The notes beneath the pieces are model-generated. The model saw nothing but the letters and a program-made list of their open reading frames with translations. It made no database searches and was not told the origin of the DNA. Positions 27,703 through 44,129 of a DNA stretch of 64,000 nucleotides are shown here, in pieces. Position 1 is the first letter of the stretch. The number at the start of each line of letters is the position of its first letter. The DNA comes from a virus. The DNA is taken from IMG/VR virus record IMGVR_UViG_3300032173_000004, positions 11,816-75,815 of that record; one strand, given 5' to 3'. The translations under genes were made by a program, and so were the position numbers.

Positions 27703-29145
27703 CTAGGATACCAGCTGGCCGATGTTCACCATCCGCAGCCACTTCTTCGGCGCGAACAGGATCGGCGTGCCGTACAGGAGGATCTGCCACCTGTAGGCCG
27801 GAGCCAGAACCGCGAGGTCCAGGCGCATCATCGGAGCCAGCTGCCGGAACGTGAGCACCTGCGGAGTCAGCTCGCCCATGTAGGCGATGCTGGTGAACGG
27901 CAGGAGGAAGTTCACGTCGTTGCCTGTGGTCGTGCCACTGCCGGCCTGAGACGCTGCCGGGATCTGCATGATCAGGCTGTAGGAAGCGCCCGTCGAGGGA
28001 ACTCCCGCGCTGGATGCACGAGCCTTGGTGCGGTACACGCGGAAGAACTCTGGAGGGAAAGCGCCGATGGCAGCTGCGTTGGTGATCGTCAGCGGCAGGT
28101 GCTGGCCCGAATCCTTGTTGCCCTGAGTCAGGCTGCCCGCTGCGGACACCATGACCGGTGCGCTCTCGCCGAAGCGATTGCATGCGGTCACGGCATAGCA
28201 GTACTCGTTGGTCCCGGCGAAGGCGCCCTTGTTGAAGTCGCCATCCGTGCCGGCGCCAGCGCCCGCTGCGATCGAGGTGGGGGTGGCGGGAGCGTTGGGG
28301 TGCGTCGCCGCCGCAGGCGGGATCGGGAGCGGACGAATGAACACGTCCGGGTTGAACTCGATGTGACCCGCCTGCGTCGCCATCGAGTTGATCGCCTGGC
28401 CGATGACGCCGTTGACCGGCGCCGGCAGGCTGACCCGCTCACGCGGGTACATCGTCTTGGTGAGGTCGCTGAGGGCCCGCGGGTTGAGGAACAGATCCGT
28501 CGGGTAGGCGTAGTTCTCGACGAGGATGTTGCTGGCCTCTTCGATGTCCGCCTCGGTCAGACTGTTGCCCTGCAGATCCACGAACGCCGTCGGATCGATC
28601 AGCGCGTCGAGACCATCCCACTGCTCTGCCTCGCCGTCGTAGGCGAGAGCGCTGTCAGCCGTGAAGAGTGCCGTCTCGACACGCTCCAGCAGCCACAGGA
28701 TGCCGTTCTGGTTCTCGAGCGCGATGATGTCACCGTGCGCGGGGTGGACCAGCGTGGCCGGGTGGGTCACTTCCCGGGTCGTGCCCAGGAACTTGACCAG
28801 CTGCGTACGGCGGACGTAGCTCGAGTCAGTGCTGGGAGGCAGCTCGCCTTCCATCGTGAACGCGAAGCTCCCGGGGCCGTACGACGTCAGCTGGTTGTAC
28901 TCCTCGACGGTGGAGTACGCCGGGCTCTTGGGGATCTTCTTCCAGAACTTGATGTGGTGGTTGGTGTAGGTGACCACCTTGAGACTGGCCTCGAGCGACT
29001 CCACGCGGAGTGCGCTACCACCGGTCTGGTTGGTGATCTGGTAGCCGGCCTCGAGGGCCTTGCTCAGCTCACGGATGTCCTGCGCGGGGGCCAGGCCGAA
29101 ACCGTTGAGCCCCTCGTAGTGCGCCAGGGAAACCTGCGGGTACAT
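27703..29145 (-). CDS. Major capsid protein (SPO1/Twort-like)
   Basis: ELSKALEAGY...GGSALRVESLEASLKVVTY...KSPAYSTVEEY...VKFLG...EQWDGL...LYGTPILFAPKKW. Confidence 0.95.
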   Translation of the reverse strand: MYPQVSLAHYEGLNGFGLAPAQDIRELSKALEAGYQITNQTGGSALRVESLEASLKVVTYTNHHIKFWKKIPKSPAYSTVEEYNQLTSYGPGSFAFTMEGELPPSTDSSYVRRTQLVKFLGTTREVTHPATLVHPAHGDIIALENQNGILWLLERVETALFTADSALAYDGEAEQWDGLDALIDPTAFVDLQGNSLTEADIEEASNILVENYAYPTDLFLNPRALSDLTKTMYPRERVSLPAPVNGVIGQAINSMATQAGHIEFNPDVFIRPLPIPPAAATHPNAPATPTSIAAGAGAGTDGDFNKGAFAGTNEYCYAVTACNRFGESAPVMVSAAGSLTQGNKDSGQHLPLTITNAAAIGAFPPEFFRVYRTKARASSAGVPSTGASYSLIMQIPAASQAGSGTTTGNDVNFLLPFTSIAYMGELTPQVLTFRQLAPMMRLDLAVLAPAYRWQILLYGTPILFAPKKWLRMVNIGQLVS

Positions 29146-29175: not shown

Positions 29176-30192
29176 TTAGCGGCCATTGCCCTGGATGCGT
29201 GCCTGAATCTGCGTGAGCAGGTCAGGACGGATCTCCCCGGTCGTGTCGAACTTGATCACCTCGAGAGGGTTGATCTGGCTCTTCTCGACCATCTCCTGCA
29301 GCACCGCGATCACCTGACCCTTGGACAGGTTCTCCCCGCCCGCGGGACCGCCGAACGACTTGTTCAGCACGGTGCTCTGCTGGCCACCCGGGAGAGCCCG
29401 AAGCTGGCTCTTGGGGGCGCCAACAGGCAGCTGAGCGACCTGCTCGACCTGCTGCAGGCTGCCCGCGATGCCGTGACCGATGTTCGCCACGGCCTCGGCA
29501 AGCGACTTGTTGAACTCGGCCTGCTCGGACGCGAACTGCTGCAGAGCCGCGAAGAGCTGGTTGCCGATGTCCAGGGAGTAGGCCTGCTGACGCTGCTCGA
29601 CGGCAGCCAGACCCGTGCCGAAGGACTTGGCGAACTCGGCCAGGAACTCGGAGACCTCAATCCCCTTGTGGACCGTATCGTTGCTCGAAAGAACCTCGGA
29701 CATGGACTTGCCGAACGGGAACCCGCCCTTGTCGTCCTTGCCCTTGTCCTTCTTGCCATCCTTCTTGTCGTCCTTGTCGTCGTCATCGTCGTCCGCGTCC
29801 ATGCCCTTCATGGCCGGGGGCTTCATGCCGCCGCCGACACCCATCCCGCCAGCGCCGGTGATCGGACCGGCCTTGTCGAGATCCGACTTGAGGAGCGCCA
29901 GCTCGTCGACGGACAGCGGAAGGCCCTTCTTGACCTTCATCCGAATCGACTTGCGAACACCACGCTCGTTGTAGTCGGTCCCATCGGGCTTGATGTCGTC
30001 GGCGCCGGGGCCGTTGCCCGGGACGTCGGTGACCTTGCCTGCCGGCCAGTCGCGACGCTCGCTGTTCGGGCCGGTGCAGATCTGGGACTTGTTCATCGGT
30101 TCCCCGGTCTGACCACCCTTCGCGAGAGCCTCCAGGCGAGCCAGGCTCTTGTAGAACTCCTCGCTGCGGATCGTGGCCTCCTGCGGTGCCAT
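29176..30192 (-). CDS. Putative scaffold protein
   Basis: Between protease and MCP. ATG 30192 with SD AGGAGG. Acidic tract and many x-K-[S/A/G] sites. Confidence 0.75.
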   Translation of the reverse strand: MAPQEATIRSEEFYKSLARLEALAKGGQTGEPMNKSQICTGPNSERRDWPAGKVTDVPGNGPGADDIKPDGTDYNERGVRKSIRMKVKKGLPLSVDELALLKSDLDKAGPITGAGGMGVGGGMKPPAMKGMDADDDDDDKDDKKDGKKDKGKDDKGGFPFGKSMSEVLSSNDTVHKGIEVSEFLAEFAKSFGTGLAAVEQRQQAYSLDIGNQLFAALQQFASEQAEFNKSLAEAVANIGHGIAGSLQQVEQVAQLPVGAPKSQLRALPGGQQSTVLNKSFGGPAGGENLSKGQVIAVLQEMVEKSQINPLEVIKFDTTGEIRPDLLTQIQARIQGNGR

Positions 30193-30203: not shown

Positions 30204-31163
30204 CTAGTTTGTGAGTCCGTTCATTCGAAAGACAGCCTTGGCCACGATCTGGGCCTGTGGCTGTGTGAGTTTGCGTTCCACCATCAGCCATGCAACGGAC
30301 TCTCCGAAGCTCATGGCCTCCGGCAACGACTTCCGAACATGCTCAGGATCAGAGTGACCGTACCGAAGATCACTCATCCGACCTTCCAGACTTTGAACCG
30401 TGATCGCACGACCTGAAGCTCCAGTAGCTGCGAACGCCTTGGCTGACTCGTTTCGCTTCTGGAGATCCATCTCTTCCTGGGTCAGAGAACGAATTGCCTT
30501 CTTCTGATCCCTTCCACCACCAGAACAGTTGCAGGCTCCACAGCACTTGCCGCCCGAAGACTCTTGGCACGATCCACGCTCTTCGCGGTGAGCTTTGTAG
30601 ACCATGTCTGGAGTAATCGAGATCGACTTGGCATCATCTGCGGCCCACCACTCCACTGGCAGGGCGTTCAACGACTTCACGACTTCGAGCCAGGTGTTGG
30701 TGTTGATCGGAGCTGCCGTGATGGCAATGTCCTGGATCCAGCACTTGATGATGGTCTTGCCAGTGCGGCGAAGAACCTTGCCCTGGATCGAGAAGCCCAC
30801 CTTACGGTTCGATCCTGATGCCTCGAGAGCCAGAATCAGCTCCCAGATCGAATCAGCCTCCTTGTGGTTCTGGAAGAGGAAGCCCTTGACGTAGAGACCC
30901 TTGGCAGTCACTCGACACTCGGTCGGCTGACCTACCTTGTTCTCGAATCCGGGCTTGTGGTCGTTGTTGAAAAAACCGTGCTTGAGGAAGTAAGAAAAGT
31001 CGATCCCGTGCTGCTTTACGATCTCATCCTGGAGATCCATGTCCTCCGTGGACGCGATGCCTTCGATCCATCGCTTCCCGTCCGCGGGCTTCTTGGTCTC
31101 AGGAGTGGATTTCGTGATCGGCAACCAGAAGGAAAAACCACTCTCTTGAAGAAGATCAAGCAT
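30204..31163 (-). CDS. Prohead (capsid maturation) protease
   Basis: IEGIASTEDMDLQDEIVKQHGIDFSYFLKHGFFNNDH...VGFSIQGKV...AITAAPIN. ATG 31163 preferred because the upstream GTG lies inside a terminator hairpin. Confidence 0.9.
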   Translation of the reverse strand: MLDLLQESGFSFWLPITKSTPETKKPADGKRWIEGIASTEDMDLQDEIVKQHGIDFSYFLKHGFFNNDHKPGFENKVGQPTECRVTAKGLYVKGFLFQNHKEADSIWELILALEASGSNRKVGFSIQGKVLRRTGKTIIKCWIQDIAITAAPINTNTWLEVVKSLNALPVEWWAADDAKSISITPDMVYKAHREERGSCQESSGGKCCGACNCSGGGRDQKKAIRSLTQEEMDLQKRNESAKAFAATGASGRAITVQSLEGRMSDLRYGHSDPEHVRKSLPEAMSFGESVAWLMVERKLTQPQAQIVAKAVFRMNGLTN

Positions 31164-31178
31164 CCAGGATCCAGAAAC

Positions 31179-31217
31179 AAAAAAAGGGAGGTCGAGCACT
31201 TGGCTCGGTCTCCCTTT
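31179..31217 (-). terminator. Promoter-proximal terminator/attenuator with CAAGU loop
   Basis: Minus strand AAAGGGAG-ACCGAGC-CAAGT-GCTCGAC-CTCCC-TTTTTTT. Confidence 0.75.
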
Positions 31218-31278: not shown

Positions 31279-31506
31279 CTACGCAGGTTTCTTTTGCGTC
31301 TGCAAGAAAAGTTTTGGCCTTCGATCACTTGGCTGAATCTTCGACGAGTCCAGCAAGACAGGCACCGGCACTTCCTCGCCGCAGTTCTTGCACACGGCGA
31401 AGGCTTTGCCATCGCGGAACACCATAACCTTGTTAAGGATTTTGACAGTCCCGTTGGCGGACTTCACCACCACACCACCACAAGGGCAGGTGATGACGTG
31501 CTCCAT
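31279..31506 (-). CDS. Zn-ribbon protein
   Basis: CPCGG...CKNCG. Confidence 0.65.
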   Translation of the reverse strand: MEHVITCPCGGVVVKSANGTVKILNKVMVFRDGKAFAVCKNCGEEVPVPVLLDSSKIQPSDRRPKLFLQTQKKPA

Positions 31507-34500
31507 CAGGCGACGGCCTGGATCCTGGAAATCATCGAATCGAGCAAGGATTTCGCAACGTTGCTATCTTGTCCCTGCTGTGGCCGATCTTCCTCGATCG
31601 GAGAGGTATCAGGCTCATCTTGCAGCTCGAAGCCGTCCGCACCGTCGTCCAGATCTCCCTTGCCCCCGTCCGCGTACTCTCTTCCATCGGGAGGAAGAGG
31701 TGGATCAGAAACACCCGTTGCCTGCTTGAACGACGCCCACTCTTGATCGTGCTCATGGAGCGGGTGACTGTGAATCCACTCGCTGAAGGCCTGCTCATCC
31801 GGCAGACGATCAGGGTGAGTTGCCGTTACGTGCCAGACCACAGGTCCGTACGTTCCCTGCGCAAGACTCTTCTCGATCTTCTTCAGCTTCTGGTAGTACT
31901 TCGGATCCTCTGTGAGATGATCCTTTGCGATCTCGTACGCAACGCTGGGATCATTGGTGTGCTCCATCTCCACCTTGATCCCCTCCATCACGCTGTCGAA
32001 GTCGAAATCCTTGTCAGCTCTTCCCTCTGCCAAACCACCAGGGATCTTATCCTTGGTGATCATGTAGGGATGCTTGTGAGTCCCGAAGACCTTGCTCTTG
32101 AACTCACGCATGGTCATCTGAGTCATCGATCCGAAAAAGTTCGGATTGTCGTAGTGCTTGAGGTAGGCCTTCTTCGCCTGCTTGGCCGAATCAAAGCCAA
32201 GCATACACTTGTCCTCGTCATACTGCTTGAAGTCCGGCCCCTTCATCTGGTGGATGACGAACACCTTGTCGGAGTTCCGACGTGGACCGACGTAGACGTC
32301 GACCTCTCCATTGTCCGTCCCCTCCGTCTTACGGATGAATCCGTACGGGTAGAGCATCTTCGTCTCACCCGTCTCTCCTGTCGCGTGATCCTCCCAACGG
32401 CGTATACTGCCGGCAGGATTCTCAATGGAGATCGGCAGGCCCTGAAACACCATCTTGCCTACGACACCGATCGAAGCTCCTGACTCTCGGTCGTCGATCT
32501 TCTGATGAAACGGCTGAGCTTTGCCAAGCTGGTGCTCGCTGCCTTCGAAGGCCGAATTCTCCGACGCCGGCTTCACATGCAACCAACGACCGGTCTTCTT
32601 GCTATCGACCCACCGGTAGCTACCGTGAACAGCGCCCGTTTCGGGATGAACCACGTCTCCGTGCCACTCCGACTTTGGATGAAGCTTCAGCTCCGTTCCA
32701 CTGTGGTCGGTGACCACTGCACGACCCATGCGTCCGCCTGGATCATGAGGAATGTTGATCTCACCTGGCTTCGTGCCGTACGACTTGTTCAGATCTGGGT
32801 TGTGGTGATGGATGGCCGCGATGTAGAGGGCCTCAACCAGCAGAGGATCGACGTACAGCTCCTGAGCAATCCTGTGGAAGCTGCCACCGCGGTGACCAAG
32901 CATCTGAGCCACTTGAGCCATCGCCTGCTTCGTGATCGCAGGCAGATTGTTCGGCTTCAGGTTGGCTTTCTTGGCAACCAGATTCTGGAAGACCTTCGAG
33001 AACAGCTCAGACCCGTGATAGACACGGAACTGGTTGAGTAGCAACCCAAACTGCTGATCCATGATCTGGGCCAACAGCGACTGGGGAATCCTCTGTCCGT
33101 TGATCTGAAACAGGTAGTCCTCTGGAGACTTGCCCTGCATCAGTTCCTGAAGGACTGCAGATGACTCGGAGTCCATGGTGACCACGGACTGATGCGGTCC
33201 ACCCGTCTTGTCCTTGTAGGTGAACTGGATCGTGTTGCCCTGAGGCGCCACGTCTTTCACCTTGATCGACAGAAGTCCACTTTCGTCGCCATCGGCCACC
33301 ATCTTGGCCTGATCCACCAGGGCCATGATGAGACCGAGAGCCCTCTCGCCCGGATCCTGGGACTGGAACAGGCTCGCATACCACTGACGAACCTTCTCCA
33401 GCTGCGCATCGACATGCTTCAGATCCTCATTGAACTTACGCCGAGGATCCTTCACACAGTCGCGGTGGAAGTAGTTGTGCTCGGTCTTGCCAGTCTCTGG
33501 GTCCTGATACCTCTGAGCCCAGTGATAGATATCAGGATCATAGTGATTATTGTCCTCAACCTCAGCACCCTCTGGAGCCGGGCGATTGAGCTTTCGACCA
33601 CGATGATCGAAGAACTGCGGTGCTACATCCGGCGTTGGCTCATGCGGGTGAACCTGAGGCGGACCTGCATTGGGATCATGGTGGGGGTGACCCTCAGGAG
33701 CGTTGGTTCCTCGGACCACGTTGCCTTGTGGATCTTCCCACATGTGCCGATGAGCACCAGGCTCTCCCTCTCTCCAGAGGTACTTCATGGTGTTGGAGTG
33801 CATCGGCTCTCCAGCCATTGCCTTGGCCAGAACATCCAGAGCCTCTTCGAAAAGAAGATCATCGAAGGCCTTGCGGGTGTACTCATACTGCGAATAGTCC
33901 GGCTCGTACTCCTCACCGGCAACGTCAGCGTACCTTTGGGCGTACTCGTCCTCCGGTTCTTTCGCAGCTGGACGGGACATGGCAGCCATGCGCTGCCGGT
34001 AGGCCTCTTCTTCTTTTCTACGCTGAGCCTGAATCTCCGGTGGGGCGAGATGAGCATACGGATCCTCTGTCGTCCCCGCCTCTACTGCTTCCGGCTCCAT
34101 CATGTGGCCGCCGCCAGCCAGCTCGTGAGCTGCTCCCTGATAGCCTTGCGTCTGCTGAAGCTGCTGTTGACGGGCTACCATCTGCTCTGGACCTGCCTGG
34201 TATCCAGTCCCCATCTTCAGACCCACACCACCAGGCTCACGACCCTGCCGAGCTTGGCCTCCCGGAGCCGGGCGTGCTGTCCACGACACCTCTGGCTCCT
34301 GGTACGGAACCGCACCAGCCTTCGGGCTGCGCATCACCTCTCCGGTCTCAGGATCGGCGAACTCAGCAGCACTTACCTGCATCGCACCCTTCGGCTTGGC
34401 AGCCTTGGCACCTTGCCTCTTGATCTCAGGCTGATCACGATACTCCCGCATCTGCTGTTCCTGTGCTGCCGACAAGAACTGAGGCAGACTTCGGATCATC

Positions 34501-36677
34501 TCACCGCGAGCAGTGTTGAGCAGGTGATTCTGAAACCGACCTCGATGCGGATTGTAGGTGTTGATGGCGTGCTCTACTGACGCGCCGATGGCGTGGCTGG
34601 CTAGCTCTTTGGCCAAGTCGTGAGATTGCGGATCCATGTGGCCACTGTACAGACCTCGAGGGCGCAGAACTCCATAGGCAGCCATGTTGTAGAGAGGGCC
34701 CATGTTCTCGGTCTGGATGTCTCGCTTGACCTTCCGTTCCAGCTCAGGACTGTTGAACTGAAGCTTGGGCGCCATACGAACATTGCGAATCTCGTGACCC
34801 AGAGAGTTGATCGTCGTTCTGACAGCTGTCGGTGCCTCACCCCACGTCCACGTTCCATGCTCCCCGTGCTCAAGAGCATTCGTGGTCTTCATCGGCTTGC
34901 GAGACTCTTTTCCTTCAGGACCACGACGAGGACGCCAGTCTGCGTCGTGCTCCACGTACGACGTGGGTTCCCATCCTGCCGTGTGCTTCAACTTCTGCCG
35001 TTCTGCGGGTGGCGTCGCTCCTCGCTCTTCCTCATCCTTGAGAAAGCGCATCGTCGATGCGTGCTTCGCCACGAAGTTTCGCAGATTGTCCGGCGTCTCC
35101 GCATGGCCGCGGGACCACTCTCCGGGCTCCTCGCCGTAGGCCTCAGCAAGAGCCTTTCCGTACTTGCTGGTCGTGTCGAACTGAGTCAGTGGCTTTCCAG
35201 TCCCTGTCTTCGGGCTGCGCCAGTGAAGCCACGGCTGACCATGAGGATCGTACTCCGTGTTGACCTGGTTCTGCAGCAGATGCCTTTCGAAGTCAGCCAT
35301 TGATCCAGGTCGATATGCCTGCTGCACGTTGGTCTTGCCAGGGGTCTGTCCGGGACCGTAGACGACAACAGAGCCCTTGGTGAACTTGGGCACACCTTTT
35401 TCGTCAACTGCGATCTCTTTCTGTTTGCCTGGCTGATCTCCCTTGCCACGGCGTCCCGCACCTCGGGCAGAGCCAGGCATGTGGATGATCTTGTCCTCGG
35501 TCTTGCCCGTGTCCTTGTTGAACAGCTGAGCCGGGAACGAACCACCCTCAGCGACATGCCACGCTCTCGAGTGATGATAGGCCTCCTCGGGAGAAGACAC
35601 GTTGGCAGCCTTGGTCTCTGGGTGGATGTCCATCGTGTGACCTGACAGACGACCCATGTGTTGAATGCCGTGGTGGCCCTCGGGATGCATCTCACCCGTG
35701 TAGGCGTACTGCCAACGGCCATTCTCCCACCACCTTTTGACGTACTGGTGACCCTGCTTCTCAGGAGCCGCCACAGGCTTCTGGGGCGCCGCAGCTGCCA
35801 CTGGGGCTGCCGGAGCCTTGGGAGCCGCTGCGGGGGCTTCCTGAGCCGCTGGAGCGCCTCCAGCAGCCTCTGCTTCGCCCAGAGCTTTGGACAGCAAGCC
35901 GCCCTCGAAATCCGGCCTCCAGCACCACAGGATACCGGTGGCTCCATCCAAAGAGCGTGCCAGGATGTTGGTGAACTTCTCCATACCAGCTCGGTCACCA
36001 GCCCCAAGATACCGGCGGATCTCCTGAATCGGATTGGTCATGGGAACCTTGATCCCGAGCACCTCCGACCAGGGCCTGCGCTGATTCTTTCCCGGTCGGA
36101 TCGGTCCCGGAGCTTTGTACTTGGTGTCTGACGTTCTCTCGTAGCCATACTTGAGAGCCAGAGGATCACCATTGGCGTCACGCGGCGTGTAGTCTCCGAA
36201 GGTGTCGACAGGCGACACTTGAGACGACATCACAGCGATCGACTTGGTGGCTTCCTTCTCTTCGTCCTTCTCCGTTTGCTCTTGAGCTTCTTCCTGCGCT
36301 TCGCCACTGTCCTGAGCATCCTGGGCAGCCTGCTCGTTCTCCTCTGCTTGACCAGAGTTGATCATGTCCTGGCGCTTCTCTTCACGCTTTCGCTGCAACT
36401 CTTCAGGATCACCACCGCGGAAGGTGCCTTCTTCTGACGGGTCCTTGGCCTTGCGAACCACAGGATTCTTGCGATCTGTGGTATTGACCCAGCTTGGCTC
36501 CATCCAGTCCGGCAGGCCGTCTGGTGTCGACTTGTCCACCTCAGCTTCCTGCCGCTTCTCTTCCCTCTTCTCCTGCATGTCCACCGGGTCACCACCGCGG
36601 AAGGTCCCATCCCCATCGCTATCGGACGCTTTGGAGATCATCTCATTGATGAGGTCGTGAGAGCTGCTAAGCCGCAT
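31506..36677 (-). CDS. Large multidomain (polyvalent-type) protein: sigma70-r2-like, topoisomerase IB-like, InPase and DUF5661-like modules
   Basis: ATG 36677 with SD GGAGG. InPase: GLPISIENPAGSIR...YGFIRKTEGTDNGEVDVYVG...DEDKCMLGF. TopIB-like: IQFTYKDKTG...FRVYHG...VAQMLGH...LYVDP. DUF5661-like: DKIPGGLA...GIKVEMEHT...IAKDHLTEDPKYY. Confidence 0.8.
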   Translation of the reverse strand: MRLSSSHDLINEMISKASDSDGDGTFRGGDPVDMQEKREEKRQEAEVDKSTPDGLPDWMEPSWVNTTDRKNPVVRKAKDPSEEGTFRGGDPEELQRKREEKRQDMINSGQAEENEQAAQDAQDSGEAQEEAQEQTEKDEEKEATKSIAVMSSQVSPVDTFGDYTPRDANGDPLALKYGYERTSDTKYKAPGPIRPGKNQRRPWSEVLGIKVPMTNPIQEIRRYLGAGDRAGMEKFTNILARSLDGATGILWCWRPDFEGGLLSKALGEAEAAGGAPAAQEAPAAAPKAPAAPVAAAAPQKPVAAPEKQGHQYVKRWWENGRWQYAYTGEMHPEGHHGIQHMGRLSGHTMDIHPETKAANVSSPEEAYHHSRAWHVAEGGSFPAQLFNKDTGKTEDKIIHMPGSARGAGRRGKGDQPGKQKEIAVDEKGVPKFTKGSVVVYGPGQTPGKTNVQQAYRPGSMADFERHLLQNQVNTEYDPHGQPWLHWRSPKTGTGKPLTQFDTTSKYGKALAEAYGEEPGEWSRGHAETPDNLRNFVAKHASTMRFLKDEEERGATPPAERQKLKHTAGWEPTSYVEHDADWRPRRGPEGKESRKPMKTTNALEHGEHGTWTWGEAPTAVRTTINSLGHEIRNVRMAPKLQFNSPELERKVKRDIQTENMGPLYNMAAYGVLRPRGLYSGHMDPQSHDLAKELASHAIGASVEHAINTYNPHRGRFQNHLLNTARGEMIRSLPQFLSAAQEQQMREYRDQPEIKRQGAKAAKPKGAMQVSAAEFADPETGEVMRSPKAGAVPYQEPEVSWTARPAPGGQARQGREPGGVGLKMGTGYQAGPEQMVARQQQLQQTQGYQGAAHELAGGGHMMEPEAVEAGTTEDPYAHLAPPEIQAQRRKEEEAYRQRMAAMSRPAAKEPEDEYAQRYADVAGEEYEPDYSQYEYTRKAFDDLLFEEALDVLAKAMAGEPMHSNTMKYLWREGEPGAHRHMWEDPQGNVVRGTNAPEGHPHHDPNAGPPQVHPHEPTPDVAPQFFDHRGRKLNRPAPEGAEVEDNNHYDPDIYHWAQRYQDPETGKTEHNYFHRDCVKDPRRKFNEDLKHVDAQLEKVRQWYASLFQSQDPGERALGLIMALVDQAKMVADGDESGLLSIKVKDVAPQGNTIQFTYKDKTGGPHQSVVTMDSESSAVLQELMQGKSPEDYLFQINGQRIPQSLLAQIMDQQFGLLLNQFRVYHGSELFSKVFQNLVAKKANLKPNNLPAITKQAMAQVAQMLGHRGGSFHRIAQELYVDPLLVEALYIAAIHHHNPDLNKSYGTKPGEINIPHDPGGRMGRAVVTDHSGTELKLHPKSEWHGDVVHPETGAVHGSYRWVDSKKTGRWLHVKPASENSAFEGSEHQLGKAQPFHQKIDDRESGASIGVVGKMVFQGLPISIENPAGSIRRWEDHATGETGETKMLYPYGFIRKTEGTDNGEVDVYVGPRRNSDKVFVIHQMKGPDFKQYDEDKCMLGFDSAKQAKKAYLKHYDNPNFFGSMTQMTMREFKSKVFGTHKHPYMITKDKIPGGLAEGRADKDFDFDSVMEGIKVEMEHTNDPSVAYEIAKDHLTEDPKYYQKLKKIEKSLAQGTYGPVVWHVTATHPDRLPDEQAFSEWIHSHPLHEHDQEWASFKQATGVSDPPLPPDGREYADGGKGDLDDGADGFELQDEPDTSPIEEDRPQQGQDSNVAKSLLDSMISRIQAVA

Positions 36678-36957
36678 TGGGACCCTCCGGGACGTCGCTC
36701 TGCGCACCAAGACCGCCGCCTTCCTGACCAGCGTTCTGCTTCATGTACAGGACATGATCTCGACCCTTGGCCGTACGGAGAAGCTCATCGATCTTGGTGT
36801 GAAGCTGCTCGTCGTGGATGTACATCTGCTCCAGCTTCTCAAGGCGCTGGATGATCTGTCTCATCTCGTCCAGGTCTTGAACCTGAAACAGGTAGCTCTC
36901 GTCAGGAAGAGCTGCTTGAGAAGCATTCAGAAGCGAATGAGCCTTGGAGTCGATCAT
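36667..36957 (-). CDS. Hypothetical protein
   Basis: 96 aa, closely packed between MuF and the large ORF. Confidence 0.6.
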   Translation of the reverse strand: MIDSKAHSLLNASQAALPDESYLFQVQDLDEMRQIIQRLEKLEQMYIHDEQLHTKIDELLRTAKGRDHVLYMKQNAGQEGGGLGAQSDVPEGPNAA

Positions 36958-36960
36958 TGT

Positions 36961-37860
36961 TCAGTCCTTATCAGGAAACGCCTTGTCAGGATCAACAAGC
37001 GTGTACTCACCCTTCTTGTTCCACCCCCAACCAGGGGGCACGTATCGCATCCGACAGAAACAGTGCGGATGAAGAGGGGGTATGACAGGACGAGCATGCT
37101 GCCGCCATGGCCTGACATAGTTCGATCCCTCATTCGACATCAGCACCGACAGCTTGAAGATCTTTGGGTTGCCAGTTTTTGGATCAAGGTACAAACGCTT
37201 GCAGTCTTCACATGCGTCTGGAGCAGGAACAATCGCCACATCGCTGTCGATTCCGTCGGAGTCCTTGTAGAAGTCAACCTTGCCAATGATCGACTGTGCG
37301 ATGCCGCGCTGCCTGACCGAGTGCATCTCTGTTGAGGCCACCCGGGACCAGTTGCGCTTGTCCTCCTTCAGACTGACAACCAGCTCCTTCATCACGTCCA
37401 GATATTTCTGGTTGAGGATGACACCAGTCTTGACCGCATCCTTGATCACACCACGTACCTGAGCCTCTGACACCGCTGCCTTGGTTTCAGCTGCCAGCTT
37501 GGAGTAGAGACCGTTGGCAATGTCCTCTCCTAGCGCCCGGTACTTGGAGTGGGCTGACAGCTCTGAGGCCTTGACCTGCAGGTTCTCGATGGGAGTCAAA
37601 GGACGCTCAGCGTCTTTTGTCAGGTCCGTCCAACCGTACTGCGTCCACTCCGTCTGCTTCATGACCGCTTCTTGCTCGCCCAGCACGAAAGCAAGTTGGA
37701 TCAAAGACGACGGAAGCTGTGTCGACATCTCAGCCGGAACAGCCACTGATCCTGGGTGTGGAGTTTGAGCGTCACCAAACAGACGCCATAGAAACCAACT
37801 CACATGGCGTTGGATGATCTCGAGGATCTTCTCCAGCTGTTGCTTGGTGAGCACCGACAT
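36961..37860 (-). CDS. MuF (Mu gpF/SPP1 gp7-like) minor head protein
   Basis: WSRVASTEMH...DACEDCKRLY...PPLHPHCFC. Confidence 0.85.
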   Translation of the reverse strand: MSVLTKQQLEKILEIIQRHVSWFLWRLFGDAQTPHPGSVAVPAEMSTQLPSSLIQLAFVLGEQEAVMKQTEWTQYGWTDLTKDAERPLTPIENLQVKASELSAHSKYRALGEDIANGLYSKLAAETKAAVSEAQVRGVIKDAVKTGVILNQKYLDVMKELVVSLKEDKRNWSRVASTEMHSVRQRGIAQSIIGKVDFYKDSDGIDSDVAIVPAPDACEDCKRLYLDPKTGNPKIFKLSVLMSNEGSNYVRPWRQHARPVIPPLHPHCFCRMRYVPPGWGWNKKGEYTLVDPDKAFPDKD

Positions 37861-37877
37861 TCAAGCACGACCTGATC

Positions 37878-38849
37878 CTACACCGTGACGTAGAGGGATT
37901 TCTTTGCCTTCTTCTTGGACCGACCTGCCATGCTGTACGCGATGGCGATGGCTTGGTCCTGAGGCTTTCCCTCGTGCATCAGCAACCTGATCTTGTCACT
38001 GACCCACTGGTCGCTCTTAGACTTGCGCATCATCCCTTCCAGAATTGATCTGGCAAATGTAGCTCCATGTGGATCTACAATCTGCGACTGACGAGCCTGA
38101 GTCAAAAGATCAGACATTGGTTTCTTACTACCCTTCAGCCGATCAGACTGCTCCAACTGACGTTCGGCCATAGGTGTGGCAACCTGGTACGTTGGACCAC
38201 CTTCTTCTGTACCAATCTTCCACGGCGCCCGAGCTTCCTGGGTTGCTTTTCCTCCCAGGACTCCTATGTGCGCAGACAAGGCAGCACTGACGTGAGGTTC
38301 CGAATAGCTCTTCGGATTCCTCGCATAGTGCATCATCATATCGTAGTGATGATCTGGCCCTGAAGTGATCCCCAAACCTTCGAGGTGTTGAATCTTGCGA
38401 TTGGTATCGGCAAGCAGATTAATCCGGCGCTGAACGTCAGGGTGAGTGGCGTCGTGACCAGAGGCCTGGTGACCATTCAGCTTCTCGGTCAGATGCACCT
38501 TCATCGCCTGCAGACGAGCATGCTTGTGCTCTGGAGAAGAAACATCAGGACCCTCGGGATGCGCCCCCTCGGACACGTCAATCGCCGCCTTGTGCAGATA
38601 GTCCGCGTGTGCCCGAACAGCTTTGAACAGATCCATTCCCTTCGTCAGGTCATCACGGATCACGAGCGCCGGCTGCGGAGGTGACGGAGGACGAAGACCG
38701 GTGATCACACCGTTCACCATTCCTTGCGTCGACACAGGACCCACTTCTGCTTGCAGAGGCGACTTCTCCATAACGATTCCACCAAGAAACGCAGATGGCC
38801 GCTCAGCGGAAACAAGTCGTCGGGGACCAATCATGTCAGCTCGGATCAT
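37878..38849 (-). CDS. Putative internal head protein
   Basis: His-rich with several x-K-[S/A/G] sites. C-terminal IRLLMHEGKPQDQAIAIAYSMA. Confidence 0.6.
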   Translation of the reverse strand: MIRADMIGPRRLVSAERPSAFLGGIVMEKSPLQAEVGPVSTQGMVNGVITGLRPPSPPQPALVIRDDLTKGMDLFKAVRAHADYLHKAAIDVSEGAHPEGPDVSSPEHKHARLQAMKVHLTEKLNGHQASGHDATHPDVQRRINLLADTNRKIQHLEGLGITSGPDHHYDMMMHYARNPKSYSEPHVSAALSAHIGVLGGKATQEARAPWKIGTEEGGPTYQVATPMAERQLEQSDRLKGSKKPMSDLLTQARQSQIVDPHGATFARSILEGMMRKSKSDQWVSDKIRLLMHEGKPQDQAIAIAYSMAGRSKKKAKKSLYVTV

Positions 38850-39015: not shown

Positions 39016-39257
39016 ACCAGGAGCATCTTCTTGATCCGAAACAACACCACCAGTTCCTGCATCATGCTGTCGATCATCGCGTCGTAGGTGTCAGACACTT
39101 CTTTGGAGAGCCTCCTCGTTGCCTCGTTCTGAGACGTGAAGAAGTCCTCCTGCTCCGATGGCTCGCCCAGAGCCTTCTCGAGAGCATCATGCATCACTTC
39201 CAGCTTTTCCGCTGGAACGGTGATGCTAACTGCGGCTGACGGATCGACCCGGGACAC
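39012..39257 (-). CDS. Hypothetical protein
   Basis: 81-aa acidic ORF. Confidence 0.55.
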   Translation of the reverse strand: MSRVDPSAAVSITVPAEKLEVMHDALEKALGEPSEQEDFFTSQNEATRRLSKEVSDTYDAMIDSMMQELVVLFRIKKMLLV

Positions 39258-39702
39258 TTCCGCCTCCGCGGCCTGCGTTCCAGTTGACCTCTTCCTGCAA
39301 GTGAGCGTTCACTAGCAGGGCGACAGCGATCTTCTCCTCGTCGGTCATCCTGGCATGAACCCCGGCGAGCCGCTTGTCCATGAGGCCTTCGAACTTCCCC
39401 GGAAGGATCGAAACCAGCATGGCCTTCTCGAAGCTCGTCAGGTTTCCACCATCCTGCAGCTTGTGCAGGGTGTCGATGATCTGGTTCGCAACGTACTTGA
39501 AGTCCAGCTTGCCGTTCGGATAACGGCGAAGCGGAGTGCAGCCCTCGTTGCGATCCACACCGTCGATCTGCGGAGAACGAACTTCGGTCTTGTGCGTGAC
39601 ACCGTCACGGAAGCTCGTCTCGGTGCTGGTGGACTTGGCCACCGTGTCGGGATCCCTCCGAAGGTTCAGTGGGACACGACCTGCGTATGGACTGTTGGAC
39701 AT
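39226..39702 (-). CDS. Hypothetical protein
   Basis: Start reassigned to ATG 39702 (SD GAGGAG): MSNSPYAGRV... Confidence 0.6.
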   Translation of the reverse strand: MSNSPYAGRVPLNLRRDPDTVAKSTSTETSFRDGVTHKTEVRSPQIDGVDRNEGCTPLRRYPNGKLDFKYVANQIIDTLHKLQDGGNLTSFEKAMLVSILPGKFEGLMDKRLAGVHARMTDEEKIAVALLVNAHLQEEVNWNAGRGGGSVPGRSVSRS

Positions 39703-39712
39703 GGTGGCTCCT

Positions 39713-40138
39713 CTACTTGCACAGCTCTTTGCGGATATACAGACTCGCGTGCTTGAACGCGGGCTGTAGCTCCGACATCGCCTGCTTGAAGTGTTCAGCC
39801 CTCGGAGTGGCACCTTGTGCCACGAGGCTGTCGAACTTCTGTTTGTGGAACGCAGCCTGCTGCTGACCTCCAGGACGCCGGCTGTGAAATTCGTGCTGGA
39901 TGTAGTGCTTCGCAGCCTCGATGTGAGGACCCTGCGTGGCCAGATGCTCGTGGTGGGCATACATCGGATCTCCTGATCCGATCTTGCCAGAGAACTCCTG
40001 CTGTCCCTCGATCGCTTTCTCAGCAGTCAGTGCTTTGACCAGATCACTTTTACTAAGACGAACAAGCAGGGGCACATGGTGGCGAGACGTCGCCCCGCCA
40101 CGTACGCCTATGAACAATCCAAGACGATCGCCACTCAT
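39713..40138 (-). CDS. Putative internal head protein
   Basis: LSKSDLVKAL followed by a His-rich helical region. Confidence 0.55.
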   Translation of the reverse strand: MSGDRLGLFIGVRGGATSRHHVPLLVRLSKSDLVKALTAEKAIEGQQEFSGKIGSGDPMYAHHEHLATQGPHIEAAKHYIQHEFHSRRPGGQQQAAFHKQKFDSLVAQGATPRAEHFKQAMSELQPAFKHASLYIRKELCK

Positions 40139-40150
40139 GAGCCTTCTCCG

Positions 40151-42121
40151 CTAGTCGATGAAAGAAGAGATCAGGGTGCCGTTCTGACTCTTGGCCATGT
40201 TGGTCTGACCCATCGTGCTGCAGGACGGGCACTTGTCCTCCATGCCCTTGTGCAACGTGTAGGTTCGTCCACAGCCGTCGCAGCTCTTAATGATCGGAGA
40301 GCGATGCGTCCTCTCGTCCTCGTCATGCTCGAGGATGTTGAGCACCTCAGCATTGAGGGGACCTGCACCAGCGTGCTTGGCAAACACCGAGTTGCCACGA
40401 GTCATCGCCTGGGTGGCGGACCTCCAGGTGTCCATCGACACAGCCAGAGCCCTCGGCAAGCGAGGAACCGACATCGAAGTCACAGCCTTGCTGACCTCGG
40501 ACTCGTTGCCAGCCGCAGCGGCACCGTGAACCGGACCCTGCTCCTTCTTGGGACAGCCAGCAGACTGCTTCCCGTGAACCTTGCCCTGAGAAGGACCCTT
40601 TCCAGCGTAGTCCTCCTCGTCGGACTTGTTCATCTGAGAAACGTTACCAGGTGCTGCTGTTCCGTGAACCGAGCCCTGGCTTGACCGAGAACCAACGTGA
40701 TCCTCTTCTTCATTTGGAGCGACGCTCGTTTGGGCTGGCCCGATCCCCATGTGCGCCGAACCGTGAACTGGGCCCTGGCTGGCGCGAGCCGCCACATGGT
40801 CCTCTTCGGCGTTGGGAGTGACACTCATCTGAGCAGGTCCAGCGTTCGGATGCTGTGCCCCGCGGACTGGCCCCTGCCGGTTGGCATCATTGCCGGCGAA
40901 GCACTTCATCATGTCCTGCAGCATCTCGATCGCTGACTTCTTCATGCTCTTCTCCTTGGCGGCAGCAGCTGGGATGGGTGGTGGAGTAGCTCTAGCGGAT
41001 GTCAGAACGTCGCCACCGTGAGACACCGTGTGCAGACCCGAGGCTCCACCCACTCTAACCGATCCCATAGACAACCTCGGCTTCGCCGCAGCGGCTGGAG
41101 TGCTTGGGGCGAACTTGGTTGGTTGCGGCTTTCCCTCCTGAGCCAAGATCGTTCGATGCTCTTCTTCTTTGACAACATGCTCCGGGAGCTTCACCCCTCC
41201 CGCCGTCGGAGTCCCCGCTGGTCTAGTCCCTGATCCAGAGAACGTGGCCCCCTGCTTCCCGATATTCACGCTGCCGAGGTAGGCCTTCTCTGTCGTGTCA
41301 GACTTGATGGCTGGCTCTGGGAACAGCCGTATGCCCTTTGCCGAGCACGACTTGCCCATGGCCCTGTTGACGCTGCCACTGAGAAAGTTCGCGTTGGCAC
41401 TCGATCGCCACGCCTTCTGACGATTTGCGGGAGTAGGGTTGTGAGCAGCGACGTGATGATCCATCGCCGCCTGCATATTCGCGTGGAAGGCCTTCTCGTG
41501 ATGCTCCTTGAGCGGCCCGCCCTTCGCTGCATGACTCTGATGCTCTTGGGCCGCGTCGAAGTACGGCTTCACGTTGCCCGCATGAATCTCACGGGGCTCA
41601 TAGCCGAGCTGCTTCGCTTCTTCGGAAGACTTCATCATGGAGTCCAGCATGTCTCCAGCTTGCGATTTTCCCATCATCTTGCTCCCGGTTTCTTTGATCC
41701 GTTTTTCACGATGTTCTTGAGAAAGACGAGCACCCGGCCTGTCTATCCCAAGCTTTGGAAGCCCGGGAGCCGGCTTGTCCAGAATCGATTCCACTTCTTT
41801 TGAACCACCTTCGAAGTCCTTGTGAACGGCAACAGACTTCTCGGCCCCGACCTGAACGTTGTGACGGATGGTGTGAGTGATCCTAGATGGAATCACTCTC
41901 TGACCACGGTACTTCGGAGCCAATCTCTTGGCTCCGCTAGTCAGCACCTTCTGCTTCTTGCTCTTGGCCGGCTTGAGCTTCTTCTTCTTTTCAAGTGCCT
42001 TGTCCATGAGACACTCCATAGCTTTCTGGGCCGACGTGTGAAGCTTTCCCGGCTCCCACTCCTTGACAGAACCACCAGGATCAAAACGACCCTGTTCTCG
42101 TCTGGGCTCAGCGGGATTCAC
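40151..42121 (-). CDS. Low-complexity putative internal head protein with internal repeats
   Basis: Repeated (S)QG(P/S/K)VHG and PNxEEDHV. Many x-K-[S/A] sites. C-terminal CxxC...CPSC. Confidence 0.65.
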   Translation of the reverse strand: MNPAEPRREQGRFDPGGSVKEWEPGKLHTSAQKAMECLMDKALEKKKKLKPAKSKKQKVLTSGAKRLAPKYRGQRVIPSRITHTIRHNVQVGAEKSVAVHKDFEGGSKEVESILDKPAPGLPKLGIDRPGARLSQEHREKRIKETGSKMMGKSQAGDMLDSMMKSSEEAKQLGYEPREIHAGNVKPYFDAAQEHQSHAAKGGPLKEHHEKAFHANMQAAMDHHVAAHNPTPANRQKAWRSSANANFLSGSVNRAMGKSCSAKGIRLFPEPAIKSDTTEKAYLGSVNIGKQGATFSGSGTRPAGTPTAGGVKLPEHVVKEEEHRTILAQEGKPQPTKFAPSTPAAAAKPRLSMGSVRVGGASGLHTVSHGGDVLTSARATPPPIPAAAAKEKSMKKSAIEMLQDMMKCFAGNDANRQGPVRGAQHPNAGPAQMSVTPNAEEDHVAARASQGPVHGSAHMGIGPAQTSVAPNEEEDHVGSRSSQGSVHGTAAPGNVSQMNKSDEEDYAGKGPSQGKVHGKQSAGCPKKEQGPVHGAAAAGNESEVSKAVTSMSVPRLPRALAVSMDTWRSATQAMTRGNSVFAKHAGAGPLNAEVLNILEHDEDERTHRSPIIKSCDGCGRTYTLHKGMEDKCPSCSTMGQTNMAKSQNGTLISSFID

Positions 42122-44129
42122 GTTGCGACCTCATGAAGTCGATGAAGTTGTCGAAGGTGACCGACTTGCCAAACAGCCCCGCATACTGCTTCTTCGTGTC
42201 GGGATGATTCGGCCCGGCAGGAGCGGCAGCCTCGGGTGCTTGTTCGTCACTTGTTGCGCTCAGATCTGGTTCGGCTGACTCGTCAGCTGGTGGAGTCATC
42301 TCAGGTTCGCCAGGCTGCATGCCAGCACCCGCCAGCTGTGCCCCACCTTGAGCCACCTTCTGCTGAAGTAGCTCCATTTCCAGAGGATGCTTGTCCTCGT
42401 TGTGACGGACCTTCTGCTCCTTTTCAGGATCTGGTGGCTCCTGCTGCTGATCCTGCTGCATACCTTGCTCTTGCTGAGCCTGTTGTTCCTGTCGATCACG
42501 CAAGGTATCTTCTCGCTGCTGCTGAATTTGGAGCAGCTGCACCAGCGTAGGATTGAGAGGAATCTCACCGATGCCACCAGGGATGTCAGGAAGATCAAGC
42601 TGACGACGAGCTTCATTCAGCGTCAGATAGCTACCGATCTGCTCCGTCAGAAGCTCGTGCTTCTCTTGTTCTGTCAGCTCATCAAGTCCAGCAAACTCGA
42701 ACACAAAGTGATCATCGATCTTGTCGATGATGTACTCGTTGATGAGTCCAGCAATGAACTTGAGAAGCGGCTTGAGACCACGGTCACGAGATGCCTTGAG
42801 CTTCCACTCCTGGCTGCTCTCGAAAAGTGGAGTCTGCTGTACGCCACCGTGCAGGTCGAAGTTGATCTCAGCCGGGTCAATAAGGTACACACCGCAGGTA
42901 ATCTTGATCAGGTATTCCAACCAACCCTGAAACCCCATCTCCTGATTCGATCGCTGCAGATCAACCCACTCGAGGCCTTCAGACTGAGTGACAGGGGTCT
43001 TCCACGCGTTCTCAGCACCTGCCACCTGGGCCGCCCACTGTCGACGAAAAGCCTCAAGCTGCTCCAAGGTCCAGTTGTCACCCTTGAAGTTGAGGATGCC
43101 TTTCGGGTTGGCGCCTTGGCTGAAGAAACGACGATTGTACTCTTCGGCGTACAGAACACCGGTGATGATCGTGATCAGCTGCTCCAGCTCTCCGTACCCA
43201 TACCCCTGAATGTAGATGTCCGATCGAGGGTTACGGATGCCGAATGCCATCTCGTCCTCGAAGTAGACATTTTCGATCTGACCGTTCACAACCTGGACGT
43301 AACGAACCGATTGCCCGACGACATCTTGCTCACCGTACGTCTGTCCCTCGTAGAGGTTGGTGAACCGGTGAGGCCTCTGCGTCGGGATCATCGAGTTGCG
43401 CTGATGATAGCTGAAATGCATTCCGGCGTCTCGATCTGGGGACGCCAACCGCATCGTCGACGCGTCCGTCGCCCAGAATTCGAAGGGAATGCCGTTTCGA
43501 CGAGGAACGACTTCGAAAGTGAGCTGGTCGAAGGTCAACGTGTCTCGGACGATGCACTTCAAGAAGGCTTCGAACTTGGGCCTCCTCATGCGAGTCCACG
43601 GATTCGATTGACCGGGCTCTCCACAGCACGCGATGAAGGCCTCAGCCCTCTGAATGAAGTCGCGCTCTGCATCATCAGTGTGATGGTCTGGGCTCTTGTG
43701 CTTGATCTGATAGCCAAGAGACTTGGTCGTTCGATAGGGCTCGGAGAACGCAGCCACCTGAGCGATACGCGTGTTGATGATCGCGCCAATAATTGACACC
43801 TGATGTGCAACCCGGCGCAGCGTATCGTAGGTCAGATTGTACCGACGATCCTTGTAGCCAAGAGAGTACTGCAGCGTCAATGGATCGAAGAATACCGACT
43901 TCGGTCCACGCTTGGCTGGGTCGTTATGGATGCCAGCAGTCGGGTCTTCCGCCTTCCTCAGCATCGCCGGGATGTGGCGAGTCATCTGTCTCAGCTCGTG
44001 AACAGCCGAGAAGATCTCGTCGGGATTGGTGGTTTCCCCGAGGGACTTGACTATATCCGTGTAGTCGATCGGTGTTCGGTTCACGATAGCAACTCCCCAA
44101 TCGACTTCTGGACCGTCGCGGTCAGCCAC
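42108..44129 (-). CDS. Portal protein
   Basis: IIGAIINTRIAQVAAFS...VRDTLTFDQ...GIRNPRSDI...GYGYGELE...YNRRFFSQG...WLEYLIKITCGVYLIDPAEINF...SRDRGLKPLL (Twort/SPO1-type). Confidence 0.93.
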   Translation of the reverse strand: MADRDGPEVDWGVAIVNRTPIDYTDIVKSLGETTNPDEIFSAVHELRQMTRHIPAMLRKAEDPTAGIHNDPAKRGPKSVFFDPLTLQYSLGYKDRRYNLTYDTLRRVAHQVSIIGAIINTRIAQVAAFSEPYRTTKSLGYQIKHKSPDHHTDDAERDFIQRAEAFIACCGEPGQSNPWTRMRRPKFEAFLKCIVRDTLTFDQLTFEVVPRRNGIPFEFWATDASTMRLASPDRDAGMHFSYHQRNSMIPTQRPHRFTNLYEGQTYGEQDVVGQSVRYVQVVNGQIENVYFEDEMAFGIRNPRSDIYIQGYGYGELEQLITIITGVLYAEEYNRRFFSQGANPKGILNFKGDNWTLEQLEAFRRQWAAQVAGAENAWKTPVTQSEGLEWVDLQRSNQEMGFQGWLEYLIKITCGVYLIDPAEINFDLHGGVQQTPLFESSQEWKLKASRDRGLKPLLKFIAGLINEYIIDKIDDHFVFEFAGLDELTEQEKHELLTEQIGSYLTLNEARRQLDLPDIPGGIGEIPLNPTLVQLLQIQQQREDTLRDRQEQQAQQEQGMQQDQQQEPPDPEKEQKVRHNEDKHPLEMELLQQKVAQGGAQLAGAGMQPGEPEMTPPADESAEPDLSATSDEQAPEAAAPAGPNHPDTKKQYAGLFGKSVTFDNFIDFMRSQRESR

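Follow-up and report, generated by a model that had tools for sequence, protein, structure and literature searches.

The giant head-cluster gene analysed here resembles the polyvalent proteins of phages and conjugative elements, among which the InPase domain has been described as a hallmark of the virion-delivered members (Iyer et al. 2017, PMC5512222). Polyvalent proteins have been likened to polyproteins, and their processing has been assigned to embedded peptidases (MPTase) (Iyer et al. 2017, PMC5512222); such a peptidase is frequent in the family but not obligatory. The terms 'topoisomerase IB' and 'sigma' are absent as domain names from the text of PMC5512222. The gene was identified in a stretch of 64,000 nucleotides, hereafter the window (positions 11,816 to 75,815 of the IMG/VR virus record IMGVR_UViG_3300032173_000004), which derives from a 75.8-kb viral contig that is ~45% complete (CheckV) and has ~57% G+C. 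It encodes a protein of 1723 amino acids (aa), in which a type IB topoisomerase (TopIB)-like domain, an InPase domain and further modules are joined. As the distribution of putative cleavage sites along its sequence indicates, this giant protein is probably cut into separate enzymes inside the capsid.

Like the polyvalent proteins, the giant protein combines unrelated enzymatic domains, InPase included, in one polypeptide, is encoded in a late or virion gene context, and is proposed to be delivered with the DNA and to have its domains freed by proteolysis. Unlike the polyvalent proteins with an embedded peptidase, it gave no match to MPTase or a similar peptidase when the whole protein and its unassigned segments were searched with Pfam, and its module borders carry the motif of a separate prohead protease. 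A motif common to cargo, capsid protein and scaffold is also a feature of the T4 internal proteins and Alt (capsid targeting sequence, gp21) and of phiKZ and SPN3US (gp175/gp245). In these phages the prohead protease acts on the head cargo once it has been assembled, and ejection is known for part of the resulting products. The T4 and phiKZ/SPN3US proteases cut after Glu, whereas the motif of the giant protein is phi-x-K/[SA] (phi, a hydrophobic residue; the slash marks the putative cut). The leaders of 6-16 residues found in the present clade resemble the short capsid-targeting leaders of the T4 internal proteins. In SPN3US, N-terminal propeptides and one mature product are formed (PMC10052503), whereas the sites described here separate several folded enzymes, so that the giant protein would act as a true polyprotein. 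The TopIB of poxviruses is encapsidated in the particle, and variola TopIB is matched in fold by the TopIB-like domain of the giant protein (TMt 0.57). The poxvirus enzyme differs in host domain and capsid lineage, and TopIB is here one module of a precursor, in which the alignment of the first catalytic Arg is ambiguous (Lys1136 is located two residues upstream).

The head proteins encoded in the window are homologous to those of recognised members of the Herelleviridae (SPO1, phi812/K and A511/P100-type phages). The major capsid protein (MCP) is 41-46% identical to the MCPs of Bacillus Herelleviridae and matches SPO1 Gp6.1 at E 1e-112, whereas the protease is 28-39% identical to Herelleviridae proteases, with 39% identity to gp32 of Bacillus phage CP-51. 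The sequence ELSK29/ALEAGY, which the initial annotation had reported for the MCP, is indeed present. Its K29/A30 aligns with K24/S25 of Staphylococcus phage phi812 (PDB 5lii) and with K23/S24 of the A511-like phage LMTA-34, and the 439-residue chain of PDB 9row, a phi812-type MCP, starts exactly at S25 and was thus deposited as the mature form. Portal, protease, scaffold and MCP genes are directly adjacent in cultured Herelleviridae, and the clade described here therefore has ~11 kb of extra head genes, including the giant gene, between portal and protease.

The probable specificity of the protease was deduced mainly from the scaffold protein. The phi-x-K/[SA] motif occurs 10 times in the scaffold protein of the window (1.2 expected), 95 times in those of 10 related loci (12.3 expected) and 11 times in that of the cultured phage CP-51 (1.0 expected), while control motifs remained flat; the protease itself contains five (1.2 expected). 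In 68 scaffold sites the pattern is acidic at P6-P4, hydrophobic at both P3 and P2', and Lys at P1, with Ser outnumbering Ala at P1'. With its conserved His and Ser core and its phrog_1028 match, the protease is assigned to the HK97-type serine prohead proteases. H81 and S137 are invariant in six proteases, including those of two cultured Herelleviridae, CP-51 and Listeria phage LMTA-34. The dipeptide K175-S176, located directly after the protease domain, is invariant in the same six sequences and is a likely self-cleavage site of the enzyme.

The protease gene also varies among relatives. A Cys-rich insert (CQESSGGKCCGACNCSGGG) is present in the C-terminal half of the window protease at ~30480-30545, and five aligned relatives do not have it. 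In the proteases of loci L004 (222-989), L005 (8239-9006) and L006 (613-1380), the catalytic domain is followed by a 26-residue copy of the MCP N-arm that is 61% identical to residues 27-52 of the window MCP. PHROG 1028 matches the window MCP as well, at residues 28-73. This copy may be a mimic for docking in the capsid interior.

The seven junctions proposed in the initial annotation were all found at the expected codons of the giant gene, namely LLSK275/AL (35886-35888), YTRK947/AF (33870-33872), VLAK963/AM (33822-33824), LNK1309/SY (32784-32786), LGK1397/AQ (32520-32522), IEK1614/SL (31869-31871) and VAK1720/SL (31551-31553). Four further N-terminal sites (K27, K60, K87 and K156) were identified, so that five sites cluster within the first 275 residues. 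Residues are counted from TTG 36710, which is the number in the database protein P0005 plus 11. The motif [LIVMFYW]-x-K-[SA] was observed 10 times in the giant protein against 3.9 expected (shuffle p = 0.0056 globally and 0.0052 within 40-residue windows), and 95 times against 41.6 expected in the homologues from 10 related loci. No enrichment was found for control motifs in the giant protein (mirror, Arg-for-Lys, Glu-for-Lys and acidic P1'), or for the cleavage motif in the MuF-like and tail genes of the window and its relatives. A scoring matrix trained solely on the 68 scaffold sites was then applied to the lysines of the giant protein. The six top-scoring lysines were K1309, K963, K1614, K156, K60 and K1720, and K[SA] dipeptides within folded domains received negative scores.

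Conservation of the sites was examined in an alignment of the window protein with ten homologues of 33-49% identity. Conserved K/[SA] sites are K87, K156, K963, K1309, K1397, K1614 and K1720. Lys87 and Lys156 are invariant in all 11 proteins, with Ser or Ala at P1' in 10 and 11 of them, respectively. K963 is kept in 9-10 of 10 homologues, K1309 in 10 of 10, K1614 in 7 of 7, and K1397 in 5 of the 6 sequences that occupy the position. An unbiased scan for columns with a K[SA] majority returned K87, K156, K963, K1309, K1614 and K1720, together with a column in the InPase fold (HQMK[GA]P) and a K[SA] column of the homologues that the window protein lacks. Inspection anchored on motifs showed K27 and K275 to be conserved as well; the latter is kept as phi-x-K/[GA], 7-12 residues upstream of HKYVKRW, in all eight homologues in which this motif was found. 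YTRK947, listed as a junction in the initial annotation, is probably no site: it was rejected as a candidate because it is conserved in only one of eight sequences and lacks the hydrophobic P3 residue.

Two AlphaFold models of the giant protein were built from 11-sequence alignments. The folded blocks comprise residues ~323-759, 976-1307 (TopIB), 1418-1543 (InPase) and 1625-1665. Every conserved site lies in a 10-residue block with a mean predicted local distance difference test (pLDDT) value <60, a class of blocks that makes up 49% of the protein. K367, K519, K1194, K1248, K1514 and K1538 are located within confident folds and are not kept as K[SA]; K519, which lies in a confident helix, was rejected as a cleavage site. 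The conserved K/[SA] sites thus fall between folded domains in the models. They are also kept in homologues of differing domain content, and in both respects the expectation formulated in the initial annotation was borne out. In relatives with separately encoded modules, the sites coincide with gene boundaries.

The modules are joined differently among the phages, and the joints are K/[SAG] sites. Borders that are gene boundaries in some relatives include those between the MuF-like and 96-aa proteins, the 96-aa and giant proteins, the N-terminal region and module A (residues 276-963), and module A and TopIB, as well as the borders of the C-terminal module. In the window the 96-aa gene stands alone; L009 and L015 have it joined to the MuF C-terminus (PLSK/GIDQNAHSLL and QLGK/SVDSVSHSLL, respectively), and in L011 and L012 it precedes the giant protein as an N-terminal fusion (..LLK/AVQLLNGLIEK/A). 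A programmed frameshift joining the 96-aa and giant genes was rejected, as P0009-P0011 and P0032 are separate genes that likewise begin at this leader. A gene of its own encodes the N-terminal region in L017, L019 and L020; in L020 the next gene has a GTG start and a leader, (V)FALWIDLVK/AHRGEHLGGKYVLRWW, that is equivalent to the K275 junction. The more distant locus L003 contains a stand-alone TopIB gene of 454 aa, the start of which (VNDINK/AFG) corresponds to the K963 junction and in which the C-terminal module is attached directly after VEK/S. The InPase of L003 is encoded by a separate 380-aa gene that adjoins the portal gene and has 8 motifs against 1.9 expected. InPase and DUF5661 are encoded separately in relatives, and the C-terminal module is a separate open reading frame in L017 and L019. 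Separately encoded units open with leaders of 6-16 residues ending in phi-x-K/[AS]; the window leader, MRLSSSHDLINEMISK/A, is likewise a short N-terminal stretch that closes on the cleavage motif, and it is modelled as a helix with low confidence.

The TopIB-like, InPase and DUF5661-like domains named in the initial annotation were all recovered with Pfam, as Topoisom_I (PF01028, residues 1091-1274, E 1.4e-15), InPase (PF18823, residues 1418-1540, E 4.6e-35; 120.8 bits against a gathering cut-off of 26.8) and DUF5661 (residues 1570-1614, E 3.9e-10). Foldseek assigned a TopIB fold, with E 1.5e-10 to human Topo I and TMt 0.55-0.57 to the TopIB of D. radiodurans and variola. The catalytic residues K1166, R1229, H1273 and Y1286 are present, and the seven closest proteins retain them. 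No residue aligns with the first catalytic Arg, but Lys or Arg occupies position 1136 (Lys in the window), two residues upstream. The catalytic Tyr is lost in the distant homologues P0012-P0015, and the second Arg and the His are also lost in P0013-P0015. These homologues keep the TopIB-like fold region, but the module is unlikely to be an active topoisomerase in those phages. In the InPase domain, which falls into the polyvalent-protein clade of type I inorganic pyrophosphatases, the acidic residues D1466, D1471 and D1498 are invariant in 11 proteins, and a pyrophosphatase fold was matched by Foldseek at E 9e-4. The PHROG families that match this domain are annotated 'minor head protein' and 'virion structural protein'.

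A domain resembling sigma factor region 2 had also been claimed, and here the fold-level matches agree whereas Pfam gives no support. For residues ~605-746, sigma domain-2 chains fill nearly all of the 26 best VIA-align rows, at Z 5.2-7.0, which is under the level that the tool treats as decisive for helical folds. Foldseek returned many sigma domain-2 chains at E 0.3-1, and the region contains a sequence motif of the type YNPxxxxGARFSTYL. Residues 277-963 matched no Pfam family at E up to 1 and hence not Sigma70_r2, so that sigma domain 2 is a fold-level lead and not a membership. Module A outside this part is rare, with 28 representatives among 1.84 billion proteins. Pfam searches of the N-terminal region, the insert, the C-terminal module and several neighbouring proteins gave nothing usable, a search of the ESM Atlas with residues 300-590 of P0005 gave no usable match, and one InPase was the sole Pfam match among further large proteins with the N-terminal hairpin region. 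Against cultured phages, megablast of the giant gene gave no match, and tblastn of the giant protein gave matches to the InPase domain solely, the full architecture not being found.

The initial annotation interpreted the gene as encoding a polyprotein that is loaded into the prohead, processed into separate enzymes and ejected. This interpretation is partly supported, and the most economical reading of the giant protein is that of a capsid-interior precursor cut at its borders by the prohead protease. Packaging, cleavage and ejection are steps that we infer. The precursor would consist of linked units that have head-cluster genes of their own in relatives, namely a leader with a propeptide-like N-terminal region, the sigma-like module, TopIB, InPase with DUF5661, and the C-terminal module. 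Each border carries the pattern that the protease apparently recognises in the MCP, the scaffold and its own sequence (acidic at P6-P4, hydrophobic at both P3 and P2', Lys at P1, and Ser, Ala or sometimes Gly at P1'). After co-assembly of the precursor into the prohead, the protease would cut at K27/K87/K156/K275, K963, K1309 (and K1397), K1614 and K1720, whereby the leader and tail would be removed and the enzymes separated; these would remain associated with the DNA and probably accompany it into the cell. Taken as a whole, a capsid-interior polyvalent precursor separated into enzymes by the prohead protease of a Herelleviridae-type head module is considered moderately probable.

Several points weigh against this reading. 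In the best-studied systems, prohead proteases strip off N-terminal propeptides and do not split enzymes from one another. The phage and its relatives are known from metagenomic contigs only. No Pfam model matches the protease, the family of which rests on PHROG 1028 and on annotated Herelleviridae proteases. The motif is short and degenerate, and its enrichment in the single giant protein is only ~2.5-fold. Because the AlphaFold alignments contain 11 sequences, low pLDDT partly reflects shallow depth and is not proven disorder; several sites lie at the ends of predicted helices, and the distant homologues P0013-P0015 do not have the K1614 and K1720 sites. In a rival explanation, the giant protein is packaged and trimmed at its ends only: the leader, the propeptide region as far as K156 or K275, and the C-terminal tail would be removed as in internal proteins of the T4 or phiKZ type, and with the enzymatic body remaining one polypeptide. 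Known prohead-protease substrates lose N-terminal propeptides, often by several cuts, and in SPN3US all identified cleavages except the self-cleavage of the protease yield such propeptides (PMC10052503); the clustering of five sites in the first 275 residues fits this pattern. The internal motifs would then be leftovers from the leaders of once-separate genes, a historical origin that is plausible because the junctions coincide with former gene starts bearing leaders. However, the scaffold matrix gives its three highest scores to K963, K1309 and K1614, and these have been kept, at the frequencies given above, while the neighbouring linkers diverged. This argues for selection on the sites, and trimming of the ends only is accordingly regarded as rather unlikely.

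An improbable alternative is that the giant protein is a polyvalent head or virion protein that stays uncut, a fate known for certain large packaged proteins, among them the N4 virion RNA polymerase (PMC5512222), and that its K-[SA] dipeptides reflect the composition of linkers and helix ends. Lys, Ser and Ala are common in linkers and the enrichment in one giant protein is modest, but p was still 0.005 in the 40-residue-window shuffles, which preserve local composition; moreover, the P3 and P2' hydrophobicity of the giant-protein sites agrees with the scaffold pattern, and neither the mirror, Arg and Glu control motifs nor the MuF and tail proteins of the same genome show enrichment. Equally slight is the chance that the modules act in the capsid or during assembly and not as ejected effectors, for example with TopIB relieving DNA torsion in packaging or ejection and with the N-terminal region and its repeats forming an auxiliary scaffold or inner-body component. 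This explanation is compatible with cleavage and differs from the favoured one in the site of action only. The gene sits among assembly genes, and its N-terminal region is propeptide- or scaffold-like with repeated charged helices, but the InPase and sigma-like modules have no obvious substrate in the capsid, and InPase-bearing polyvalent proteins have been read as delivered with the DNA (PMC5512222).

The precursor reading can be extended to the clade as a whole. As a tentative possibility, the prohead protease would be a polyprotein processor that follows a portable code, in which an amphipathic leader of 10-16 residues or an internal junction ending in phi-x-K/[SA] marks capsid cargo and separates fused enzymes. 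The cargo would be a sigma-domain-2-like RNA-polymerase-binding module, TopIB and a pyrophosphatase, forming a starter kit for transcription and DNA topology that is delivered with the genome. In that case, neither the phage-packaged TopIB nor the packaged sigma-like factor would have a precedent; a literature search found no report of TopIB in a phage virion, and packaged sigma-like modules were not searched for. Delivery of the TopIB or sigma-like module with the DNA would suggest a new way in which phages prime early transcription or DNA topology. The evidence points to processing in trans by the capsid-maturation protease, in contrast to the embedded peptidases proposed for polyvalent proteins. 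Such processing would link prohead maturation with the delivery of polyvalent effectors, in a lineage related to the Herelleviridae, which are much used in phage therapy. Sequence alone suffices to recognise the motif, which could therefore serve to predict the head cargo of uncultured phages and possibly to target foreign proteins into capsids.

The features of the head-gene cluster are listed in Table 1. The open reading frame of the giant gene is uninterrupted over 1734 codons (31506-36710), and the product of its probable start codon is identical to P0005.

Table 1. Head-cluster genes of the window and predicted modules of the giant protein
Feature	Position in window	Strand	Basis or remark
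Portal	42108-44129	-	PF04860
MuF-like minor head protein (weak assignment)	36961-37860	-	phrog_115 E 2.2e-5
96-aa gene	36667-36957	-	Fused in relatives to MuF or to the giant protein, K/[SAG] at junction
Giant head-cluster gene	31506-36677	-	1723 aa from ATG 36677; open from TTG 36710
N-terminal leader, ending ISK27/A	36630-36677	-	Homologous genes have 12-16-residue leaders ending phi-x-K/[AS]
Propeptide-like N-terminal region, residues 28-275	35886-36629	-	Sites K60, K87, K156, K275
Module A, residues 276-963	33822-35885	-	Folded domain ~323-759
Sigma-factor domain-2-like helical sub-domain, residues ~605-746	34473-34898	-	VIA-align, Foldseek
Type IB topoisomerase-like module, residues 964-1309	32784-33821	-	Bounded by K963/A and K1309/S; Pfam Topoisom_I
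Lineage-specific insert, residues 1310-1397	32520-32783	-	K1309/S to K1397/A; pLDDT <35
InPase + DUF5661 module, residues 1398-1614	31869-32519	-	Pfam; ends IEK1614/S
Conserved C-terminal module, residues 1615-1720	31551-31868	-	FSxWxHSHPxHEHD motif; ends VAK1720/S
C-terminal tail SLLDSMISRIQAVA after K1720	31509-31550	-	K/S[LIM][LIM][DE]x[ML][IM] kept in 8 homologues
Prohead protease	30204-31199	-	Likely start ATG 31163; phrog_1028 E 5.8e-53
Scaffold protein	29176-30192	-	phrog_15087; 10 phi-x-K/[SA] sites
MCP	27703-29145	-	phrog_752 E 4e-100

The N-terminal region mostly has pLDDT <60 and contains two GTFRGGDP..KREEKRQ repeats, an acidic stretch and a conserved QVSPVDTFGDY...WSEVLG block. 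The repeats, located at 36380-36630, have the form GTFRGGDP(x)5-6KREEKRQ and each follow a K/A site by a few residues; their FRGGDP and KREEK cores are invariant across homologues, and the motif is absent from the rest of the window. Module A consists, in order, of an Ala/Pro linker, a hairpin ([HK]xYxKRW..GxWxY), the folded domain and a disordered Gln/Glu-rich tail ending in VLAK963/A. Its pLDDT is 80-90 across model residues 312-748. The sequence HQYVKRWWENGRWQYAY corresponds to residues 321-337 of the giant protein and is predicted to form a beta-hairpin (pLDDT >85). A hairpin-like motif ([HK]xYxxR..GxWxY) occurs after three junctions, at ~35700-35750, 33730-33800 and 32600-32660, as HQYVKRWWENGRWQYAY after K275, KYLWREGEPGAHRHMWEDP after K963 and SYRWVDSKKTGRWLHV after K1309, respectively.

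The segment between K1309 and K1397 was called a small module in the initial annotation; by prediction it is a disordered insert that has no counterpart in homologues, and not a domain. The C-terminal module shows invariant columns in the alignment and a pLDDT of ~70-77 at residues 1625-1665. The leader (HDLINEMISK/A) resembles the tail (K/SLLDSMISRIQ), and in homologues the pair reads SLFDEMISK/A and K/SLLDEMIRL; the leader carries the site at its end and the tail at its start. The C-terminal tail was also considered as a mimic of the scaffold C-terminus and rejected, because the likeness seen in the window (LLTQIQARIQ against LLDSMISRIQ) does not hold across the clade.

The head cluster is encoded on the minus strand in the order portal, further genes, MuF-like gene, 96-aa gene, giant gene, protease, scaffold and MCP. 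An identical gene order was found in 12 related loci with homologues of the giant protein, the MCPs of which are 72-83% identical. The location of the giant gene between MuF and protease, as given in the initial annotation, agrees with this order in the window and in the related loci. The label MuF itself is less firm; it draws on the phrog_115 match and on a Phage_Mu_F match of the L003 homologue at E 0.009, below threshold, and both matches are weak. The further genes include three at 37878-38849, 39226-39960 and 40151-42121 (minus strand), which encode unassigned head-cluster proteins of 323, 244 and 656 aa, respectively. These proteins are also enriched in phi-x-K[SA], with clade-wide counts of 17 (5.0 expected), 20 (2.2 expected) and 51 (12.3 expected), respectively, and are candidates for additional cargo processed by the protease. 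A zinc-ribbon-like tail (CxxC...CxxC) closes the 656-aa protein and recurs on the stand-alone InPase protein of L003.

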